A DNA stretch of 8,668 bases from a virus. Taxonomy: Duplodnaviria > Heunggongvirae > Uroviricota > Caudoviricetes. The stretch lies in the IMG/VR virus record IMGVR_UViG_2740892423_000019, one strand, 5' to 3'. A program made the position numbers and the translations under genes. Position 1 is the first letter of the stretch. Each line of letters opens with the position of its first letter. Positions 2,312 through 8,668 of this stretch are shown here, in pieces. The notes beneath the pieces were generated by a model. The model did no database searches. It saw only the letters and a program-made list of their open reading frames with translations, and had not been told where the DNA came from.

Positions 2312-2322
2312 GTGGGGTGAAT

Positions 2323-5300
2323 ATGGCAGTAAAGATTTCAGGTGTACTGAAAGACGGTGCAGGTAAACCGGTACAGAACTGCACAATCCAGCTGAAAGCA
2401 AAACGTAACAGCACCACGGTGGTGGTGAACACGGTGGCATCTGAAAATCCGGATGAAGCCGGGCGTTACAGCATGGATGTTGAGTACGGTCAGTACAGCG
2501 TTATTCTGTTGGTGGAAGGCTTCCCGCCATCGCATGCCGGGACCATCACCGTGTATGAAGACTCACAACCGGGTACGCTGAATGATTTTCTCGGTGCCAT
2601 GACGGAGGATGATGCCCGTCCGGAGGCACTGCGCCGCTTTGAACTGATGGTGGAAGAGGTGGCGCGTAACGCGTCCGCAGTGGCACAGAACACGGCAGCC
2701 GCGAAGAAGTCAGCCAGCGATGCCAGCACATCAGCCCGTGAGGCGGCAACCCATGCGACTGATGCTACAGGCTCAGCACGTGCAGCCAGCACATCAGCCG
2801 GGCAGGCCGCGACGTCGGCTCAGTCAGCGTCTTCCAGCGCAGGAACGGCATCAACAAAGGCTACTGAAGCATCAAAAAGTGCTGCCGCTGCAGAGTCCTC
2901 AAAAAGCGCGGCAGCCACCAGTGCCGGTGCGGCGAAAACGTCAGAAACGAATGCCGCAGCATCACAACAATCAGCAGCCACTTCTGCATCCACCGCGACC
3001 ACGAAAGCGTCAGAAGCTGCCACCTCAGCCCGGGATGCGGCGGCCTCAAAAGAGGCAGCGAAATCATCAGAAACGAACGCATCATCAAGTGCCAGTAGTG
3101 CAGCTTCCTCGGCAACGGCGGCAGGAAATTCCGCGAAGGCCGCAAAAACGTCTGAGACGAATGCGGATAACAGCGCACAGGCGGCAGCAGACTCACAAAC
3201 TGCATCGGCAAACTCCGCGACAGCAGCCAAAAAATCAGAAACCAACGCGAAAAATAGCGAGGCAGCAGCAAAGAGCAGCGAAACCAACGCTAAAGCCAGC
3301 GAAACTAATGCTAAATCCAGTGAAACAAACGCGGCGAAATCTGCGGCGGACGCACTTAATTATCGCAACCAGGCGCAAGTAATTGTTGGCGATAATATCG
3401 GTCTTGGTGAAGTTGCCATGACCTGCACTGATATCTCTGTTGAGCCATCAGGTTATATTGGATTTGTCAGGATTTACATCTCAGCGAAAGGTTATCCATC
3501 AGTAGCGTCTAGTGCCGGTGATAATCTTATTTCTGGTTATATAGTTAGATCAGAAGTGTCAACAAAAAGATATTCCGGTCTATTTGTTGGTTCAGATACA
3601 AAATCATTGTATTCGTACATTTACAGCCAAAGTTCTGGCCCGCAATGGATACGTCATACCCGCAGAGATGAATTAAGCCGCTTTGGTCAAAATGAATCAA
3701 CAACTCGTATGTATGGTCCAACTGGTGATCGTTTCTTTGAAATCCATACTAACGGGAGTTGGGGAGTTTATGATTCTTCTTCTGGACAATGGTCTCCGTT
3801 AGGTTTAGCCCAGGGCGGTACTGGTGGAAGAACTATCGAGCAAGCACGTGCGAACTTGCGGGTAATGTATGAGCAAAAAGCTGGCCTTGCTAATACTGAC
3901 CTAAACACCCTTACCGGTGAATATTCTGGTTTCTATCAACAACCAACGAGCGCTTACGCAACAGAAGAATTAAATTACCCAATCGGTCTGGCGGGCGCTT
4001 TAATAGTGCTCCAAACGAGAGCCAACACTGCTTCTTCCTGCGTTCAGGTGTACTACCCTTATAATAATCCGGGAATTACTTATAGACGAATATATGAAGG
4101 AGGAAGCGGTACCTGGTCTGAATGGAAGAGAGATGTATCAACAGAAAGGGTTGAAGAGGGAAAAGAAACAACTTACGTATATTCTACGTATTCTTCAGGC
4201 GCACCACGCTTACAGGTTTCCAAATCTGGTTTGTGGGGTTGTCATAATGGCACTGGCTGGTTGCCATTAGCTGTTGGGCAAGGAGGTACAGGTGCGACAA
4301 CAGTAGAAGATGCGCGAAACAACTTAAGTCTTGGCGAAAGTAGCGCAGTTAAATTTAAAAACCTTACTTTAACCGAAGCGCTCGACACGACATTAGGACT
4401 GCTTACAAAAACAGGACGAGACTGGAACACGCAGCATACTGATAACATTAATAAATTTATACCAATTGCAGGCAGTACAAACGGCCCGGCAGGTTCTATG
4501 GTTCTTGGCGGCATTCATGTTCAATTTAGTAAAAATTATGCTGTGCAGTTCGGAGGCCGCAATTCCGGTTTTTGGGGAAGAACAATTGAAAATGGAACGA
4601 CGCAGGAATGGAAGAAATTACTAACAGTAGACGATCTCAATTCATCTACCGATCTTGCTGTCAGGTCATTAACCACATCTAACCCGGTAAAATCTGGCGG
4701 AGGGCGAATTGATGTCCTTGGAAGCACGTCAGACTATAGCAAAATGGATTGCTTTGTACGTGGGTTTGATAGCACCGGTAATTCTCTCGCGTGGGCGTTG
4801 GGTTCATCAGTCGGCGTAAGTAAGATGCTGTCGCTAAAAAATTTCTTTAGCGGAGCTGAGATACTGTTAAATGGTAATGACGGCGCGGTTCAACTCAAAA
4901 CAGGTGCTGTTAACGGGGCTAAAGCACAGGCGCTCACTATCAACAAGGATGAGGTTAACTCAACTGTTGATTTAACTCTTACAAAACAAACAGGGACTGG
5001 AAATCGTTTTGTTTTACAGAACTTAGGTAATACAGAACTATCATTTGCCGCAAAAGTATGGGGATCAAGTGATCGACAAAACGTTTTTGAGGTTGGAACG
5101 TCTGCTGCGTATCTGTTTTATGCGCAAAAAACATCAGCAGGCCAGTTGTTTGATGTAAATGGCGCTATTAATTGCACAACGCTGAATCAGTCATCAGACC
5201 GCGACCTTAAAGACGATATTCGCGTTATCAGCGACGCTACGAAAGCAATCCGTAAAATGAACGGGTACACCTACACGCTCAAGGAAAACGGAATGCCTTA

Positions 5301-5628
5301 TGCTGGCGTTATTGCACAGGAAGTAATGGAGGCGATACCTGAAGCTGTGGGATCGTTTACTCATTATGGTGAAGAGTTGCAAGGTCCGACCGTTGACGGC
5401 AACGAGCTACGCGAAGAAACTCGCTATCTTAATGTTGACTACTCCGCCGTGACGGGGTTACTTGTTCAGGTCGCCCGTGAAACAGATGATCGCGTTACCG
5501 CGCTGGAAGAGGAAAATACAACGTTACGTGAAAATCTGGCAACAGCAGGCACCCGGATCACCACTCTGGAAAATCAGGTAAGCGAACTGGTTGCACTTGT
5601 CGGGCAGTTAACAGGAAGCGAACATTGA
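2323..5628 (+). CDS. stf: Side tail fibre protein, mosaic: lambda Stf-like N-terminus, Ala/Ser/Thr-rich shaft, divergent distal region, C-terminal self-cleaving chaperone domain
   Basis: Translation from ATG 2323 begins MAVKISGVLKDGAGKPVQNCTIQLKAKRNSTTVVVNT, which matches the lambda Stf N-terminus as recalled. The ORF track starts at the in-frame GTG 2317, which I regard as an artefact. A GGGG Shine-Dalgarno-like run sits at 2314-2317. The protein has a long low-complexity Ala/Ser/Thr shaft with repeated K(T/S)SETNA units, and two GGTG-x-ARxNL motifs (LGLAQGGTGGRTIEQARANLRV and LPLAVGQGGTGATTVEDARNNLSLG) typical of the phage tail fibre repeat. The gene ends at TGA 5626-5628. Confidence 0.88.
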   Translation: MAVKISGVLKDGAGKPVQNCTIQLKAKRNSTTVVVNTVASENPDEAGRYSMDVEYGQYSVILLVEGFPPSHAGTITVYEDSQPGTLNDFLGAMTEDDARPEALRRFELMVEEVARNASAVAQNTAAAKKSASDASTSAREAATHATDATGSARAASTSAGQAATSAQSASSSAGTASTKATEASKSAAAAESSKSAAATSAGAAKTSETNAAASQQSAATSASTATTKASEAATSARDAAASKEAAKSSETNASSSASSAASSATAAGNSAKAAKTSETNADNSAQAAADSQTASANSATAAKKSETNAKNSEAAAKSSETNAKASETNAKSSETNAAKSAADALNYRNQAQVIVGDNIGLGEVAMTCTDISVEPSGYIGFVRIYISAKGYPSVASSAGDNLISGYIVRSEVSTKRYSGLFVGSDTKSLYSYIYSQSSGPQWIRHTRRDELSRFGQNESTTRMYGPTGDRFFEIHTNGSWGVYDSSSGQWSPLGLAQGGTGGRTIEQARANLRVMYEQKAGLANTDLNTLTGEYSGFYQQPTSAYATEELNYPIGLAGALIVLQTRANTASSCVQVYYPYNNPGITYRRIYEGGSGTWSEWKRDVSTERVEEGKETTYVYSTYSSGAPRLQVSKSGLWGCHNGTGWLPLAVGQGGTGATTVEDARNNLSLGESSAVKFKNLTLTEALDTTLGLLTKTGRDWNTQHTDNINKFIPIAGSTNGPAGSMVLGGIHVQFSKNYAVQFGGRNSGFWGRTIENGTTQEWKKLLTVDDLNSSTDLAVRSLTTSNPVKSGGGRIDVLGSTSDYSKMDCFVRGFDSTGNSLAWALGSSVGVSKMLSLKNFFSGAEILLNGNDGAVQLKTGAVNGAKAQALTINKDEVNSTVDLTLTKQTGTGNRFVLQNLGNTELSFAAKVWGSSDRQNVFEVGTSAAYLFYAQKTSAGQLFDVNGAINCTTLNQSSDRDLKDDIRVISDATKAIRKMNGYTYTLKENGMPYAGVIAQEVMEAIPEAVGSFTHYGEELQGPTVDGNELREETRYLNVDYSAVTGLLVQVARETDDRVTALEEENTTLRENLATAGTRITTLENQVSELVALVGQLTGSEH
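5194..5625 (+). other. C-terminal self-cleaving chaperone domain of Stf (Peptidase S74 / endosialidase-chaperone-like)
   Basis: The motif SSDRDLKDDIRVI has the Ser-Asp-x-x-x-Lys signature of autoproteolytic tail-fibre chaperone domains (phage K1F endosialidase, T5 L-shaped fibre). It is followed by IRKMNGYTYTLKENG and a heptad-like tail, TALEEENTTLRENLATAGTRITTLENQVSELVALVGQL. Predicted cleavage is after the Ser encoded at 5194-5196. The assignment is by motif recall and was not searched. Confidence 0.65.
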
Positions 5629-5679
5629 TATCCTTCAAGCCCTGAAGGAGGCTGTTCCTGGTACGTTCAGACTGTTGTT

Positions 5680-5811
5680 GAGCTGGAAATCGCAACGGAG
5701 GAAGAAACCTTGTTGCTGGAAGTCTGGAAGAAGTATCGGGTGTTGCTGAACCGTGTTGATACATCAACTGCACCTGATATTGAGTGGCCTACGAACCCTG
5801 TCAGGGAGTAA
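5680..5811 (+). pseudogene. tfa: 3' remnant of tail fibre assembly gene tfa (last ~43 codons, no start codon)
   Basis: The segment translates to [43 protein letters not shown], which closely matches the lambda Tfa C-terminus (recalled as ...[37 protein letters not shown]...). It lies in the same frame as stf, directly after the stf TGA, with no ATG, GTG or TTG start and no N-terminal Tfa sequence. Confidence 0.7.
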
Positions 5812-5825
5812 TCATTGGGATTATG

Positions 5826-5858
5826 CCGCAGCACGTCTTAAGCAAGAGCGAGCTGCGG
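5826..5858. repeat. 33-nt palindromic element, copy A (hairpin between the convergent tfa remnant and methyltransferase 3' ends)
   Basis: The sequence is ccgcagcacgtcttaagcaagagcgagctgcgg. An imperfect stem (ccgcagc...gctgcgg) lies 8 nt downstream of the - strand methyltransferase stop codon (5866-5868). It is 33/37 identical, including the flanking ttgg, to copy B at 8526-8558. Confidence 0.5.
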
Positions 5859-5865
5859 TTGGATG

Positions 5866-6534
5866 CTATTTTTTCCCTGAAGCGGAAAACATTACTACAG
5901 TACCTTGAACCTTGGTTTTAACATTCTCGAAATGCTCTGAGAGTATATGTGTTAAGCCTTCTTCGGAATCTTTTGTGTTTGAAAAGATGCCTTTCTGATT
6001 GTAAATGCGCATCAGTTTTTGACCGAAGCTATTGTGCACAACTCCATCGCCAAGAATTGTGGCTCCGTATAGAGTTCCATCGTCAGTTAAGGCCTGCGCC
6101 GCATTGCGTATTACACAGCTTTTTGTAGATATATTTCCAGGCAGGCAGTGAAGAAGGTAAAACATGGAAATGGAATCAAATTGACCATGTAACGCCGCGG
6201 GATAAGGTTCAAAAACATCATGGCTAATTTTATGTTTAATTTTTGATTCCCCAGCCCTTGTAGATGCCGCGTTCAGGCTAGCTTCGTTCAAATCCATTAA
6301 AGATATCAGACTACTCTCAGGTACGTGAGTAAGGTAAAACCCAGTTCCAACACCAATATCCAGATGGTTGTTACCTAAATGTTCCAGAAAGTGTGGAAGA
6401 AGGTGTTCCTTTGTAGGACATCCCCATGCAAGCCGATTTGATACTCCCAAAACCCACCAGTCATAAAGCTTTAGGGTAAGTGGTGTGTAAATTTTAGCCC
6501 CATCATCTGTGTTTTTTTTCATTAATTTCACCAT
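5866..6534 (-). CDS. Class I (Rossmann-fold) SAM-dependent methyltransferase, substrate unknown
   Basis: The 222-aa ORF carries a canonical motif I, HLDIGVGTGFY (hh-D/E-h-G-x-G-x-G), and a downstream acidic motif-II-like LISLMDLNE. GC is around 40%, lower than the phage structural genes. The start is uncertain: ATG at 6534 (MVKLMKK) or ATG at 6522 (MKKNTDD, weak ggtga Shine-Dalgarno-like sequence 6 nt upstream). Confidence 0.72.
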   Translation of the reverse strand: MVKLMKKNTDDGAKIYTPLTLKLYDWWVLGVSNRLAWGCPTKEHLLPHFLEHLGNNHLDIGVGTGFYLTHVPESSLISLMDLNEASLNAASTRAGESKIKHKISHDVFEPYPAALHGQFDSISMFYLLHCLPGNISTKSCVIRNAAQALTDDGTLYGATILGDGVVHNSFGQKLMRIYNQKGIFSNTKDSEEGLTHILSEHFENVKTKVQGTVVMFSASGKK

Positions 6535-6590
6535 GTTATAGTTTTGTTTGTGAATTAAATCAATTATGGTGATGAATTACAAGGGGTTAA

Positions 6591-6860
6591 ATGCTGCCGC
6601 AGCATAGCGATATTGAAATAGCCTGGTATGCTTCGATACAGCAGGAGCCGAATGGCTGGAAGACCGTCACCACATAGTTCTACATCCAGGAATTCAGTGA
6701 GCATATTGCGCCACTTCAGGATGCTGTAGATCTGGAGATCGCAACGGAGGAAGAAAACTCGTTGCTGGAAGCCTGGAAGAAGTATCGGGTGTTGCTGAAC
6801 CGTGTTAATACAACAACTGCACCGGATATTGAATGGCCAACAGGACCCATTATCGAATAG
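6591..6860 (+). pseudogene. Small ORF with a Tfa C-terminal-like domain, interrupted by an in-frame amber codon (TAG 6675-6677)
   Basis: ATG 6591 is preceded by aagggg (Shine-Dalgarno-like). It encodes MLPQHSDIEIAWYASIQQEPNGWKTVTT, then TAG, then in the same frame [60 protein letters not shown]. The second part matches the lambda Tfa C-terminus ([20 protein letters not shown]...[22 protein letters not shown]). No start codon exists after the amber codon. It resembles the small Tfa-C-like proteins of E. coli cryptic prophages (ynaE/ydfK family), from memory and unverified. Confidence 0.5.
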
Positions 6861-6871
6861 TGCATTACGAA

Positions 6872-6904
6872 CTGCAGGATATTATATGGGATAATATTCT
6901 GCAG
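6872..6904. terminator. AT-rich inverted repeat between convergent genes (possible bidirectional terminator)
   Basis: Arms of 14 nt, ctgcaggatattat and ataatattctgcag, carry one mismatch and flank a 5-nt spacer (atggg). The + strand continues with tttatt. The repeat sits between the small ORF stop (6860) and the cyclase stop (6934). Confidence 0.3.
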
Positions 6905-6933
6905 TTTATTGGGGCTGTATTTTAAAAAGGTGT

Positions 6934-8265
6934 TTATTTTGAGTGAGTTATCACCTTGTTTTTTCCGGTTCTTTTGGCTTGATATAACGCTTTATCGGCA
7001 TTGACTAACATTTCAGATGGACTGAGATTATTCTCTTTTGAAGTAAAGCAACCAATACTGACAGTTATTTTCTCAGGTCCATGCGATAATAATTTTTCCG
7101 AGCATTGCTCTTCAATGTTTTTTCTGATTCGCTCTGCAATTGATAGCAAGAGCTTTTGAGTATTACCTTTAATGATAATACCGAACTCCTCACCGCCTAA
7201 GCGCCCTAATATATCCTCTTTCCTGATGGATTTTTTTATTATTCTGGTAACCATTACTATGACTTGATCACCCATATGATGCCCCCATTTGTCATTGATG
7301 CTTTTGAAATTGTCAATATCTAACATTATTACTGAGAAATCATGGTGTTTTGATATATTCTTCAATGAGTCAATAAAGTATCTTCTATTGTATGTATTCG
7401 TTAGTGGATCATGAATTGCCATATGATTAGCATGATTTAATTTCCTGAAAACATAATACATGAGTGTTGAAATGATATAAATCATTGATATCAATTCAAG
7501 AAATTTTGTCATGTACCATGCAGGATGGGATTTATCAATAAAATACAATAAAATTAGATTATTGCATACTGACACTATACTAATAAGTATTATACACAAC
7601 CATATTTTTGAGTAATTACGTATGCTGATGCATGAGCTGATAAGTAATACAAGCCAAAATACTGATATTATTTTGGTGTACACGATATTCCACGTCGACA
7701 AATGACGATTCAGCGAGTATTGTATAATATTAAGACTATATTTTATATTGTCACTGCTTAGATTTTTTGCTACAAACGGAGTAATAAAAAGAATTAATAT
7801 TGACAAAACAACAATTATTATGTTTCTTTTATCTTCTAAAACACTTTTATTTTTAACATTGGTGGAATAAACAGCCAGAAAGATTATAGATATAAAGCTG
7901 AACTGACGGAATAGATAATATATTGCGATATCATTTGATTTCTGATAGATTGTAGATAAATCGTTACCTAACGGAGATAAAGAAATAATAGCCACTTCTA
8001 ATAAATAATACGTGTTGCTCAAAAACGCGAATGAAAGAATTAAGAGATAACTTTGTCTCTGATTAGAAACATAGTAAAGCAATAGAAAAATAAAAATCAT
8101 CAGGTTTATGAAAAAAAGCCCAATAATGAAAACACTATAACTTATTTGTGTTGTTTGTGTTATGTATATTCCATTATTTTCATGCAGTAACAAAAATATA
8201 ATAGAGATGCATGAAAATAAAAAGATGAAGATTTTTATTTTTATAGGTACCTGCTTGATAATCAT
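6934..8265 (-). CDS. Membrane-anchored diguanylate cyclase: N-terminal polytopic membrane domain (MASE-like) plus C-terminal GGDEF domain with GGEEF active site and RxxD I-site
   Basis: The 443-aa ORF has ATG at 8265-8263 with aggtg 5 nt upstream on the - strand. The first ~270 residues are highly hydrophobic, with about 8 predicted transmembrane segments rich in I, L and F. The GGDEF domain motifs are all present: HDPLTNTYNRRYF, MLDIDNFKSINDKWGHHMGDQV, the I-site RKED (7213-7224), and RLGGEEFG with GGEEF at 7183-7197. GC is about 25-30% by hand count on sampled 60-nt lines. The architecture resembles E. coli YcdT/DgcT-type cyclases and possibly the prophage-associated DgcX reported in some pathogenic E. 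coli; both comparisons are from memory. Confidence 0.9.
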   Translation of the reverse strand: MIIKQVPIKIKIFIFLFSCISIIFLLLHENNGIYITQTTQISYSVFIIGLFFINLMIFIFLLLYYVSNQRQSYLLILSFAFLSNTYYLLEVAIISLSPLGNDLSTIYQKSNDIAIYYLFRQFSFISIIFLAVYSTNVKNKSVLEDKRNIIIVVLSILILFITPFVAKNLSSDNIKYSLNIIQYSLNRHLSTWNIVYTKIISVFWLVLLISSCISIRNYSKIWLCIILISIVSVCNNLILLYFIDKSHPAWYMTKFLELISMIYIISTLMYYVFRKLNHANHMAIHDPLTNTYNRRYFIDSLKNISKHHDFSVIMLDIDNFKSINDKWGHHMGDQVIVMVTRIIKKSIRKEDILGRLGGEEFGIIIKGNTQKLLLSIAERIRKNIEEQCSEKLLSHGPEKITVSIGCFTSKENNLSPSEMLVNADKALYQAKRTGKNKVITHSK

Positions 8266-8337
8266 GTACGCACCTGAGAATGATATATATATAATATGTA
8301 TCGCTACAAATAACGATAATTTCTTACTGGTGATAGT

Positions 8338-8366
8338 ATACTATTATTCTGGTTAATCGCTGTCAA
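8338..8366 (-). promoter_or_regulatory. Candidate sigma70 promoter for the diguanylate cyclase
   Basis: On the - strand there is a perfect -35 TTGACA (plus-strand tgtcaa, 8361-8366), a 17-nt spacer, and a -10-like TAGTAT (plus-strand atacta, 8338-8343), about 70 nt upstream of the ATG. This is a hand prediction in an AT-rich region where chance matches are common. Confidence 0.25.
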
Positions 8367-8525
8367 ATTGATGATTTTGGTTAGTATTGCAATAGCGAAG
8401 AGTTTGATCCGGTAAGACTGGCTAGGCAAGGCTATACCAAAAAATCAGTGTAGGTTCAGAAAACGATGCACCATACAATCATCAATAATTTCAAATTGTC
8501 CATTGTGCATAAATCATAAAGAAAA

Positions 8526-8558
8526 CCGCAGCACGTCGTATGCAAGAACGTGCTGCGG
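8526..8558 (-). terminator. 33-nt palindromic element, copy B; on the - strand a hairpin followed by a T-rich tract (terminator candidate for a gene entering from the right edge)
   Basis: The sequence is ccgcagcacgtcgtatgcaagaacgtgctgcgg, with a perfect 11-bp stem (ccgcagcacgt / acgtgctgcgg) and an 11-nt loop. On the - strand the stem is followed by ttttctttatg. Reverse-strand frames at 8587-8668 remain open to the window edge, consistent with the 3' end of a - strand gene. Confidence 0.4.
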
Positions 8559-8668
8559 TTGGCTGGTGAACTTTCTGGATTTGCCCCTATATTTCCAGAC
8601 ATCTGTTATCACTTAACCCATTACAAGCCCGCTGCCGCAGATATTCCCGTGGCGAGCGATAACCCAGC

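Follow-up and report, generated by a model that had tools for sequence, protein, structure and literature searches.

The two near-identical palindromes in this 8,668-nucleotide stretch of DNA (the window), from the tailed-phage record IMGVR_UViG_2740892423_000019, belong to a noncoding module of about 100 nt that has a fixed position and orientation in lambdoid prophages. The palindromes probably represent the transcript-end hairpin of this module, which would double as a homology handle for the stacking of cargo cassettes. The stem of the hairpin covaries across the family, the junctions around it are mosaic, and a 3′ end has been mapped on the minus strand of a homologue in E. coli K-12. We infer that the two copies, referred to here as A and B, themselves end or stabilise transcripts, and that their duplication was made by recombination and not by some other mechanism.

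The relevant features of the window are the following:

5677..5811, plus strand: tfa′1, 3′ fragment of a tail fibre assembly gene (from the RefSeq annotation of the near-identical locus L001)
5826..5858, minus strand: copy A hairpin, a hairpin-only family member
5866..6534, minus strand: cargo 1, class I SAM-dependent methyltransferase, 222 aa (Pfam Methyltransf_12/23/25/11)
6684..6860, plus strand: tfa′2, second tfa 3′ fragment, between both cargo genes
6869..6907, no strand assigned: third, diverged hairpin with a 17-bp stem, of the same type as copies A and B
6934..8265, minus strand: cargo 2, MASE4 + GGDEF diguanylate cyclase, 443 aa (Pfam, 152.7 and 122.9 bits)
8518..8575, minus strand: copy B region, i.e., the resident module, cut off by IS2
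8576..8668, minus strand: right end of IS2, inverted (matches fall under IS3-like element IS2 family transposase)

Copy A with its trailing bases (5826-5862) reads CCGCAGCACGTCTTAAGCAAGAGCGAGCTGCGGTTGG, and copy B (8526-8562) reads CCGCAGCACGTCGTATGCAAGAACGTGCTGCGGTTGG. The two are equal at 33 of 37 positions, lie 2700 nt apart in direct orientation, and were recovered by a repeat search of the window as family D5 (40 nt, 88%). A pattern with N at the four variable positions matched only these two sites, and none of 200 shuffled sequences contained any match, in agreement with the earlier note, which had described a pair of near-identical direct palindromes. That note had also pointed to a perfect stem and a minus-strand T-tract in copy B and to the lack of such a tract in copy A, and the sequence bears this out. 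Specifically, the stem of copy B consists of 11 perfect base pairs and is followed on the minus strand by UUUUCUUU, whereas that of copy A is weakened (7 bp, an A.A mismatch, 2 bp) and has a U-tract on neither strand. Folding, proposed earlier as a check on stability, gave -24.9 kcal/mol (z -4.65) for 73 nt of the copy B minus strand and -21.2 kcal/mol (z -2.6) for copy A. A simple terminator scan called neither copy, because its loop limit is 8 nt. As both the U-tract and a full stem are missing, copy A is not a canonical intrinsic terminator; our reading is that it is a decayed version of the hairpin. About 20 IMG/VR loci have an identical junction with a perfect stem (11/11).

The palindrome is not the whole unit. 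In the case of copy B, homology to its relatives extends to 8575, and thus the repeat unit is larger than the palindrome. It comprises an A-run at 8518-8525 (the minus-strand U-tract), the hairpin at 8526-8558, and the first 17 nt of a conserved block at 8559-8575. A covariance model, R1, scores 62.2 bits over 8514-8614, 60 nt are found at 100% identity in other E. coli, and the intact counterpart of this module lies at 12512-12619 of L001. IS2 is inserted at 8575/8576, i.e., 17 nt past the hairpin and inside the conserved block, and the homology of the window with L001 and a second locus, L002, ends at 8574/8575. For copy A, R1 scores 28.4 bits over 5814-5877, and homology to the full module stops after TTGGATG. 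Each copy had been placed just 3′ of a minus-strand gene. This holds for copy A, which lies 8 nt past the stop codon of the methyltransferase and, on the opposite strand, 14 nt past that of tfa′1. For copy B, the neighbour is the IS2 transposase, an accidental one. Copy B is not at the 3′ end of a cargo gene; both the diguanylate cyclase and the promoter-like site of this gene are downstream of it.

The complete module is noncoding and consists of the A-run, the hairpin, and a highly conserved block of about 60 nt; copy B is its left end. Of 5,426 complete E. coli genomes, 5,415 contain matches to a 60-nt query around copy B, at 22,999 places in total and with a median of 4 per genome; the pair is not private to the cargo of this prophage. 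The full module occurs at 220 places in 213 phage records, with about one copy in each lambdoid phage, among them lambda, HK97, HK633, phi80 and Stx phages. It invariably lies with the tail-fibre and cargo region on one side and the int/att end or a dinI-like gene on the other, in constant orientation. Among 15 copies from representative Escherichia and Shigella genomes, the kinds of neighbours and the orientation were likewise constant, with tfa, pinQ-ydfK, the methyltransferase, the cyclase or ykgJ on the left and a dinI-like gene on the right. The genome search suggested by the earlier note yields a very widespread family that marks the cargo-insertion zone in other lambdoid prophages as well. 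One K-12 copy, between ykgJ and ecpE, seemingly belongs to the core genome; it lies in a prophage-end relic, adjoined by remnants of tfa and of a dinI-like gene. Exact matches to the block outside Escherichia and Shigella are on low-coverage or lambda-sized contigs. In existing annotations, the HK633 record labels the module attP, PGAP calls it a ‘capsid protein’ pseudogene, and Rfam has it as the tail of CssrB.

In the commonest context, an 82-aa DinI-like open reading frame on the minus strand stops 8 nt ahead of the conserved block, and is preceded by CTGTATACAAACACAG, which resembles a LexA box. The module persists in phages without a dinI-like gene (HK97, HK633, lambda), where it comes after sib/attP/int; in HK97 the annotated sib site directly adjoins it. 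Even among copies retrieved by the hairpin alone, the 60-nt block hardly varies, and its conservation exceeds that of the stem. As a kind of element the hairpin is ordinary, and its reading as a terminator does not account for the stronger conservation of this block.

Evidence for a conserved secondary structure was obtained from 73 distinct copies. In these, 91% of the stem cells pair, and 7 of the 11 base pairs show double, i.e., compensatory, changes. Double-change cells number 46, compared with 13.7 in shuffled alignments, none of which (0/500) attains the observed value; in controls in which the stem was slid, only 30-48% of cells pair. A second stem in the module shows no covariation in the same 73 copies, because it is invariant. 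As to the strand, 78 of 132 loci, with several unrelated left flanks, have a minus-strand U-tract (5 or more T among the 8 nt that follow the stem); about 40% of family members, including the full copy in lambda, have no good U-tract. The plus-strand tail is TTGGCTGG. Counts of G.U versus C.A pairs favour neither strand, as 36 variants fold better as plus and 23 as minus. The whole module is more stable as plus (-40.1 versus -31.5 kcal/mol), and its minus-strand fold has two stem-loops ahead of a U tail (z about -3.5).

Term-seq data for MG1655 published by Adams et al. (2021, PMC7815308) place a minus-strand 3′ end at 304,212/213, which in the ykgJ-ecpE copy is 4-5 nt past the stem. This end was seen in all three growth conditions and does not fall in a Rho region; its intrinsic-terminator score is 2.78, slightly below the cut-off of 3.0 used in that study (supplementary files 1 and 3 of PMC7815308). 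It is an ‘orphan’ end, seen despite low coverage of the flanking 800 nt, and it could be a processing product. No plus-strand 3′ end is listed near this copy, and the same lists report no 3′ ends at the Rac and Qin copies of K-12. The minus-strand end in K-12 is the only 3′ end mapped at any family member. The earlier suggestion of duplicated 3′-UTR terminators comes close: the hairpin is the stem-loop of a module that most often forms the 3′ UTR and terminal hairpin of a minus-strand dinI-like gene, and a K-12 homologue has a mapped end on this strand.

The window contains further duplicated elements that the palindrome pair had left out of account. The two tfa fragments form a direct repeat, D2 (5666-5792 and 6715-6841; 127 nt, 89%), and both match Rfam IS009, tfa′1 with 92.7 bits and tfa′2 with 129.9 bits, the latter over the gathering score. 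We read tfa′1 as the left-hand homology handle. The third hairpin directly follows the stop codon of tfa′2 and is 27 nt from that of the diguanylate cyclase, i.e., it sits between convergent genes. Its fold has -26.6 kcal/mol (z -6.4), and R1 scores 25.5 bits over 6860-6944 (E about 7e-5). On the plus strand it has a U-rich tail, UAUUGGGG, of which the UU at 6906-6907 is itself part of the paired 17-bp stem. Judging from an alignment with the lambda hairpin that follows tfa, it appears to carry paired C-G to T-A changes. Each of the two cargo genes has its own promoter-like site; that of the cyclase is sigma-70-like (8366-8338, minus strand, TTGACA-17-TAGTAT, 10/12) and lies downstream of copy B along the direction of transcription.

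Simpler arrangements were found among related loci, namely tfa-hairpin-methyltransferase-tfa′-hairpin, X-hairpin-methyltransferase-tfa′-hairpin and tfa-cyclase-hairpin, and the window type is their combination. The left side of copy A (tfa stop, hairpin) aligns with one arrangement and its right side (hairpin, 3′ end of the methyltransferase) with another, so that the joint between the tfa fragment and the methyltransferase cassette is inside or at the hairpin. This supports the earlier suggestion that the palindromes are footprints of recombination. The breakpoints of the cassettes vary: some are on the left side of the hairpin, some follow TTGGATG, and others are spread over several points in the 60-nt block.

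A mechanism consistent with these observations can be proposed. On the minus strand, the module would be an RNA 3′-end element for leftward transcription, with a conserved leader of about 60 nt and then a GC-rich hairpin, after which a U-tract usually comes; most commonly it would serve as the 3′ UTR of the dinI-like gene with the LexA-box-like sequence. At copy B, leftward transcripts, which now emerge from IS2, would end before the promoter of the diguanylate cyclase. Copy A sits at the minus-strand end of the methyltransferase, where this gene converges with the tfa remnant. Cassettes would be stacked or exchanged by homologous recombination, with the 3′ end of tfa and the hairpin as shared handles; copies A and B would flank cargo because cassettes recombine through these handles.

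Other explanations were weighed against this one. The entire module might be an sRNA gene, specifically a DinR-like 3′-UTR sRNA released on the minus strand from the SOS-induced mRNA of the prophage dinI-like gene. In that case the RNA would have the hairpin as terminator and would carry its seed in the invariant 60 nt; copy B would be truncated and dead and copy A a terminator alone. This idea, which we regard as possible although unlikely, draws on the near-invariance of the block, on its start just 8 nt past the dinI-like stop codon and its retention where that gene has been lost, on the minus-strand fold with its U tail, and on the orphan 3′ end in K-12 amid low flanking coverage; there is also a precedent, in that DinR is processed out of the dinI 3′ UTR (PMC10907235). 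Against it, the U tail is missing in many copies, the second stem does not covary, being invariant, and no consistent -35 element is present upstream of the TAAAAT at the edge of the block. The 3′ UTR of the K-12 chromosomal dinI is not homologous, and the sequence was found neither in the literature searched nor in the supplementary files of EHEC Hfq-CRAC. The sRNA is a candidate only. The hairpin could also act chiefly on the plus strand, where the late tail-fibre transcript and a CssrB-type sRNA would both end at it, i.e., as a plus-strand or bidirectional terminator between convergent units. Hairpins do follow tfa stops by 8-15 nt in the window (copy A, 6869-6907) and in lambda, the plus fold is the more stable, and the third hairpin has a moderately U-rich plus tail with U also at stem bases 6906-6907. 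Moreover, at two loci (L022 and L055) a full Rfam CssrB (230 bits) ends in this same hairpin by the 3′ end of the methyltransferase, and CssrB gives a Northern band of about 180 nt in Shigella flexneri (PMC3071730). Yet the tail on this strand reads UUGG(C/A)UGG, not a U-rich sequence, in copies A and B as well as in the full module, and the sole 3′ end mapped in the family is on the minus strand, with none listed nearby on the plus. As to CssrB itself, its 3′ end is given in PMC3071730 without the ‘~’ that marks its 5′ end, and the methods (R/M/P) include prediction; for these reasons we take that end to be a terminator prediction and not a mapping. We therefore consider a chiefly plus-strand function improbable.

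A DNA recombination signal at cassette boundaries, be it attC-like, a site of some recombinase or a phage att, would fit the imperfect palindromes found in the same orientation around minus-strand cargo in three independent cases (lambda ea47, the methyltransferase, the cyclase), the breaks in flank homology at or beside the hairpin, the wobble-pair counts, which favour neither strand as a DNA structure predicts, and the attP label in HK633. This proposal is weakened, and we deem it very unlikely, given that no recombinase consistently adjoins the element, that the module is found with unrelated integrases and at varied host sites (bio, zinT, dacD, ydfJ), that the breakpoints are not fixed, and that the longer tfa repeat lies alongside the hairpin, as homologous exchange predicts. 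A DNA signal by which cassettes are exchanged where the tail-fibre region ends is likewise a less likely variant than the SOS-linked sRNA. Least credible, and in our estimation close to negligible, is a generic dispersed REP/MITE-type repeat unrelated to module boundaries. Copies are indeed very numerous across E. coli and one is in the core genome, but the latter is within the prophage-end relic, each genome has a median of just 4 copies and each phage about one, neighbours, position and orientation are constant, and exact block matches beyond Escherichia/Shigella are confined to the contigs noted above. The REP-like option of the earlier note is accordingly not supported in its generic sense.

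With the reading as a transcript-end hairpin and homology handle, the architecture of the window is explained: it is the rare right arm of a prophage in which two common cargo cassettes were stacked via tfa/hairpin handles, followed by IS2. More generally, the module is a very widespread noncoding element with a covarying stem that marks the zone of cargo insertion by lambdoid tail fibres. At present unannotated or mis-annotated, it is usable as a landmark in the search for prophage cargo, for instance genes of defence, signalling or virulence. Were the 60-nt body an sRNA, nearly all E. coli would carry this prophage regulator, in about 4 copies each, and a role as an SOS-linked sRNA would explain both its near-invariance and its retention after gene loss.

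Several known elements were compared with the module and do not match its identity. REP/BIME repeats occur in a genome by the hundreds, in either orientation and frequently in clusters, between unrelated genes; the module has its few places per genome and fixed neighbours. Crossover sites of Pin, Gin or Hin are inverted pairs around an invertible segment with an adjacent serine invertase. Here the orientation is direct and neither a pin gene nor another invertase is present in the window, so the earlier exclusion of such sites stands; Qin-type loci have pinQ beside a single copy. Integron attC sites have conserved R/L core sites and an adjacent IntI and attI, and in the loci examined the cassette region contains no integrase of any kind. 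An attP/attB site is shared by the phage and a specific bacterial site and used by one integrase type. The module occurs with a lambda-type Int in HK97 and an IntS-type in HK633, in prophages by bio, zinT, dacD and ydfJ; because the integrases are unrelated and the host sites differ, it cannot be the att site of all of them. The lambda tI/sib element is also a stem-loop on a leftward transcript, past int and attP at the far end of the integrated prophage, and is recognised by homology to the tI hairpin and a distance of about 190-240 nt from the att core. In contrast, the tI hairpin (ATTAGCGCAAG...) is unrelated in sequence and differs in position, lying about 3.3 kb to the right of the lambda copy of the module; the HK97 sib is annotated beside the module and not on it, and the module has no known RNase III site.

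Other systems are closer. Intrinsic terminators that bound phage ‘morons’ were reportedly described by Juhala et al. and Hendrix et al. in 2000. The moron concept is cited in PMC4104026. Such terminators are alike in being GC-rich stem-loops, usually with a U-tract, that end independently transcribed cargo in the lambdoid late region. They differ in that here one homologous hairpin family occupies a single genomic position in hundreds of phages, is tied to the 60-nt block, and is present without any moron (HK97, HK633); copy A, in addition, has no U-tract. CssrB, the chromosome-encoded Shigella sRNA B (RF02799; Peng et al. 2011, PMC3071730), shares its 3′-terminal stem-loop with the family, including the copy A loop CUUAAGCAAGA, and the full RNA lies to the left of the hairpin, beside the same methyltransferase gene, at the two loci mentioned. 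It is defined on the plus strand, whereas the window holds the hairpin alone, with the CssrB body replaced by the tfa fragment at copy A and by the upstream region of the cyclase at copy B. Scores against the 180-nt model are 44.1 bits for copy B (8462-8557) and 24.3 for copy A (5795-5857), below the gathering score of 76, and reflect the terminal hairpin only; the copies are thus not members. DinR, an sRNA from the Klebsiella dinI 3′ UTR (Ruhland et al. 2024, PMC10907235), is similar in combining a conserved 3′ UTR and a terminator of a dinI-family gene with a LexA-box-like sequence ahead; here, the gene is a prophage paralogue of dinI, and no homology to the chromosomal dinI 3′ UTR was found. 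Finally, the lambda b-region, in whose records NC_001416 and J02459 neither family member is annotated, carries other cargo and a full copy without a U-tract, but has the same three-part architecture: tfa and a hairpin (22573-22608), the minus-strand cargo gene ea47, and the full module (24162-24265).

The window corresponds to the right arm of a lambda-like E. coli prophage, in which two 33-nt palindromes, copy A and copy B, bound a set of cargo genes.

Features of the window (strand given where minus)
30-1592: gene J, 3' part
1659-2258: lom
2317-5628: side tail fibre gene
5677-5811: first 3' fragment of the tail fibre assembly gene tfa, followed by copy A
5826-5862: copy A, CCGCAGCACGTCTTAAGCAAGAGCGAGCTGCGGTTGG, by direct reading of the sequence
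5866-6534, minus: SAM-dependent methyltransferase gene
6684-6860: second tfa 3' fragment (direct repeat D2, 89% over 127 nt)
6869-6907: third, diverged hairpin, immediately past the stop codon of the second tfa fragment; stem of 17 bp, -26.6 kcal/mol, z -6.4
6934-8265, minus: MASE4-GGDEF diguanylate cyclase gene, followed by copy B
8526-8562: copy B, CCGCAGCACGTCGTATGCAAGAACGTGCTGCGGTTGG, by direct reading of the sequence
8576-8668: IS2 right end, inverted; starts 17 nt past copy B and splits a conserved 60-nt block

Direct reading confirmed both palindromes where they had been claimed (5826-5858 and 8526-8558), with 33/37 identity and a spacing of 2700 nt, and a repeat search of the window, which grouped them as family D5, confirmed that they are direct rather than inverted. 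When its four variable positions were left free, the pattern matched only these two copies in the window; 200 shuffles yielded no match. In copy B the stem is perfect over 11 bp and is followed by UUUUCUUU on the minus strand; in copy A, 7 bp are followed by an A.A mismatch and a further 2 bp, and both strands lack a U-tract. A simple terminator scan made no call at either palindrome because of its restricted loop length.

The closest complete E. coli genome match, RMDEC332 (94% coverage), has the identical gene order without IS2, and adjoins ybhB-bioA, i.e., the lambda attachment region. The minus-strand gene that the earlier note placed beside copy B therefore belongs to IS2: it is the transposase gene, brought there by an accidental insertion. 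The claim that each copy lies just 3' of a minus-strand gene holds for copy A, beside the methyltransferase 3' end, and for copy B only through this accident. In the minus-strand reading direction copy B instead precedes a strong sigma-70-like promoter-like site (8366-8338, minus strand; TTGACA-17-TAGTAT) and the cyclase gene, and follows no cargo gene. The cyclase cassette was also seen beside zinT in another strain; its product may resemble the prophage-borne DgcX of O104:H4. Elsewhere, the tail fibre gene contains in-frame degenerate repeats at 2698-3255 (families D1 and D3), rich in Ala, Ser and Lys and spaced by multiples of 3, which are typical of an stf shaft.

Copy B shares homology with other loci from an A-run left of the hairpin to about 60 nt right of it: TTGGCTGGTGAACTTTCGATAGTGCGAGTATTGAATGATTTCCAGCCGTTACCGATTTTA. 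This unit of about 100 nt, the module, has its left end in copy B, and in the window IS2 cuts its conserved block after 17 nt. With 60 nt around copy B as the query, 5,415 of the 5,426 complete E. coli genomes gave matches, at 22,999 places in all (median 4 per genome, maximum 13). Among phages, 213 records hold the full module, at 220 places, i.e., once per phage; they include HK97, HK106, HK75, phi80, HK633, HK542, mEp460 and many Stx phages. In a one-genome-per-species collection, exact matches to the block core were confined to Escherichia and Shigella, barring low-coverage or ~48.4-kb contigs of unrelated taxa, which are probably lambda DNA contamination of assemblies. The odd contigs with an exact 28-mer were assigned to a Chromatiales MAG, Chromatium, Pseudomonas, Shewanella, Streptomyces and Enterococcus (L230, L234, L238, L243, L264; short contigs L232, L236, L248 and others). 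The position of the module is regular: in HK97 its place is between tfa and the sib annotation, which it abuts; the 171 nt that separate stf from int in HK633 consist mostly of the module, annotated there as attP; and prophages at bio, zinT, dacD and ydfJ carry it at a distance of 0.2-0.8 kb from the host junction. Among 15 copies in representative Escherichia and Shigella genomes the kinds of neighbour and the orientation are constant, with tfa or minus-strand cargo (including pinQ-ydfK, the methyltransferase, the cyclase and ykgJ) on the left and a dinI-like gene or the prophage end on the right.

The commonest right flank (L116 and about 60 other loci) carries an 82-aa DinI-like ORF on the minus strand, which comes to its stop 8 nt short of the conserved block. 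On that strand, a prophage dinI-like gene thus ends in the module, which provides its 3' UTR (60 nt) and its terminal hairpin. A LexA-box-like sequence, CTGTATACAAACACAG, lies upstream of this ORF, which suggests SOS-induced leftward transcription into the module. The 3' region of the chromosomal K-12 dinI gene differs, and no homology to the module was found there. The K-12 region from yagU to ecpE (MG1655, 303.6-304.5 kb) has the look of a prophage right-end relic: a tfa remnant, matched by Rfam IS009 at 202 bits, is followed by minus-strand ykgJ, which takes the place of the cargo, then by the module and by a dinI-like C-terminus in degraded form. IS009 (RF02111) matches the tfa 3' fragments of the window as well (5568-5768, 92.7 bits; 6614-6817, 129.9 bits, the latter above the gathering score), and the K-12 yagU-ykgJ spacer (L006, 2612-2811), where the sRNA EcsR2 was reported; what IS009 describes as an 'sRNA' family is thus the relic of a gene for tail fibre assembly. 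EcsR2, which lies in that spacer and corresponds to the tfa relic, was rejected as the identity of the hairpin.

Across 73 aligned, distinct copies, 91% of the cells in the 11-bp stem are paired, as compared with 30-48% in slid controls. Compensatory double changes in seven stem pairs amount to 46 cells versus 13.7 expected from column shuffles, and none of 500 shuffles reaches the observed value. That is, the hairpin stem is under selection as a structure. As the aligned copies had been gathered with a 28-mer from within the 60-nt block, the apparent invariance of the block is inflated, but a hairpin-keyed scan recovered the known full-module loci and added a single full module, L198, with one base different in the 28-mer. 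A hairpin-only pattern scan of IMG/VR gave many chance matches, and a palindromy filter was applied. On the minus strand, at least 5 T occur in the 8 nt past the stem at 78 of 132 loci, with several unrelated left flanks; the plus-strand tail is TTGGCTGG. The K-12 homologue, the ykgJ-ecpE copy, has a published Term-seq 3' end on the minus strand, at 304,212/213 of MG1655, 4-5 nt past its stem. This end is present under each of the three growth conditions and was flagged as not Rho-dependent, but its intrinsic-terminator score, 2.78, is just below the authors' threshold of 3.0 (PMC7815308). The earlier proposal of duplicated 3'-UTR terminators is partly supported by the dinI-like 3' UTR and by this mapped end, with copy A, which is without a U-tract, counting against it.

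How the window came to hold two copies is suggested by a census of loci. The order tfa-hairpin-methyltransferase-tfa'-hairpin, the last being the full module and tfa' a tfa 3' fragment, occurs at at least 6 loci; X-hairpin-methyltransferase-tfa'-hairpin, in which the left hairpin retains the A-run, at 5; and tfa-cyclase-hairpin at 4. The order in the window, tfa-hairpin-methyltransferase-tfa'-cyclase-hairpin, was seen only in L001, which is near-identical to the window, and L224, and by comparison of these sequences it appears to combine two commoner arrangements, with the join in the tfa 3' repeat. Copy A is a hairpin only: its homology to the full module stops after TTGGATG, where the methyltransferase 3' end starts, and it aligns on its left to one arrangement and on its right to another. 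The same junction in about 20 IMG/VR loci has a perfect 11/11 stem, to which the window copy adds two substitutions. These mosaic flanks and arrangements support the suggestion of a recombination footprint. The third hairpin, 27 nt from the cyclase stop, is detected by the family covariance model at 25.5 bits. Aligned with the post-tfa hairpin of lambda, it shows paired C-G to T-A changes and is apparently a diverged relative. Lambda shares the layout of the window: the tfa stop is followed by a hairpin-only copy (22573-22608), ea47 on the minus strand and a full module (24162-24265); neither the copy nor the module is annotated in the lambda records.

Taken together, these data make it probable, if well short of certain, that the palindromes are copies of a conserved, leftward-acting transcript-end stem-loop at the junction between tail-fibre or cargo genes and the int-att region, duplicated by cassette stacking. 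The stem-loop would act mainly on leftward transcripts. Copy B would keep transcripts that come in from the right away from the cyclase promoter and the tail genes, while copy A, now decayed, would close off the methyltransferase unit where the tfa remnant converges on it. The duplication would be a by-product of cassette stacking via homologous recombination.

The genome search did reveal a very widespread family, as a generic REP-type repeat would be, and the pair is not private to this cargo; but the element occurs about once per phage, in a fixed position with constant neighbours and orientation, and a REP-like identity is scarcely credible. A recombination or att signal is also very improbable. 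The HK633 record labels the module 'attP' (L009, 2526-2606) on similarity to the ykgJ-yagV spacer, and RefSeq has it as a partial 'capsid protein' pseudogene (L004, 3032-3103); both labels look like mis-annotations, because the module co-occurs with unrelated integrases and unrelated integration sites. Among the loci examined we found no consistently adjacent recombinase. The breakpoints vary (some lie to the left of the hairpin, some just past TTGGATG and others at several places in the 60-nt block) and a longer tfa repeat travels alongside the hairpin, which favours homologous exchange between phages over a site-specific mechanism.

The remaining alternatives concern the strand and the product. 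Wobble-pair counts favour neither strand, the whole module folds more stably on the plus strand, and the Rfam sRNA CssrB, on the plus strand, ends in a module-type hairpin in another arrangement (230 bits, L022 and L055); the hairpin may therefore work both ways between convergent units. In Shigella, a Northern blot reportedly showed CssrB as a band of ~180 nt (PMC3071730). Its full match (L022, 3028-3207, minus strand; L055, 6299-6478, plus strand) adjoins the 3' end of a window-type methyltransferase gene and ends in a copy-A-type hairpin. A 547-aa ORF follows CssrB in the same orientation as the methyltransferase gene, and L022 also has a sok/CssrC match (12930-13105). Given the minus-strand U-tracts and the K-12 transcript end, a mainly plus-strand or bidirectional terminator seems rather improbable to us. 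Less remote, though still unlikely, is a 3'-UTR-derived sRNA analogous to DinR (PMC10907235), which would account for the invariant 60 nt that a terminator leaves without explanation. An independent promoter for a minus-strand sRNA was rejected: TAAAAT lies at the block edge, but the -35 is inconsistent among flank classes. A small ORF over the block was likewise rejected on inspection, the single ATG-started frame extending into non-conserved flanks. Two further identities were also rejected, namely a homologue of lambda sib/tI, in view of the lambda sequence at 27.4-27.8 kb and of how HK97 is annotated, and the AgvB/AsxR-type prophage anti-sRNAs, which are located at the pR' moron site, unlike the module.

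The leftward transcript-end stem-loop thus remains our preferred reading, and the conservation of the 60-nt block, for which it does not account, is the part worth following. No description of the module as a family was found in the literature searched, Rfam has no family for it, and a text search for its printed sequence gave no matches. Parts of it have been captured already, as the 3' hairpin of CssrB, the 'attP' note of HK633 and an orphan Term-seq peak in K-12. A terminator-like hairpin that bounds cargo is shared with phage morons, and in this respect the element is ordinary in kind.
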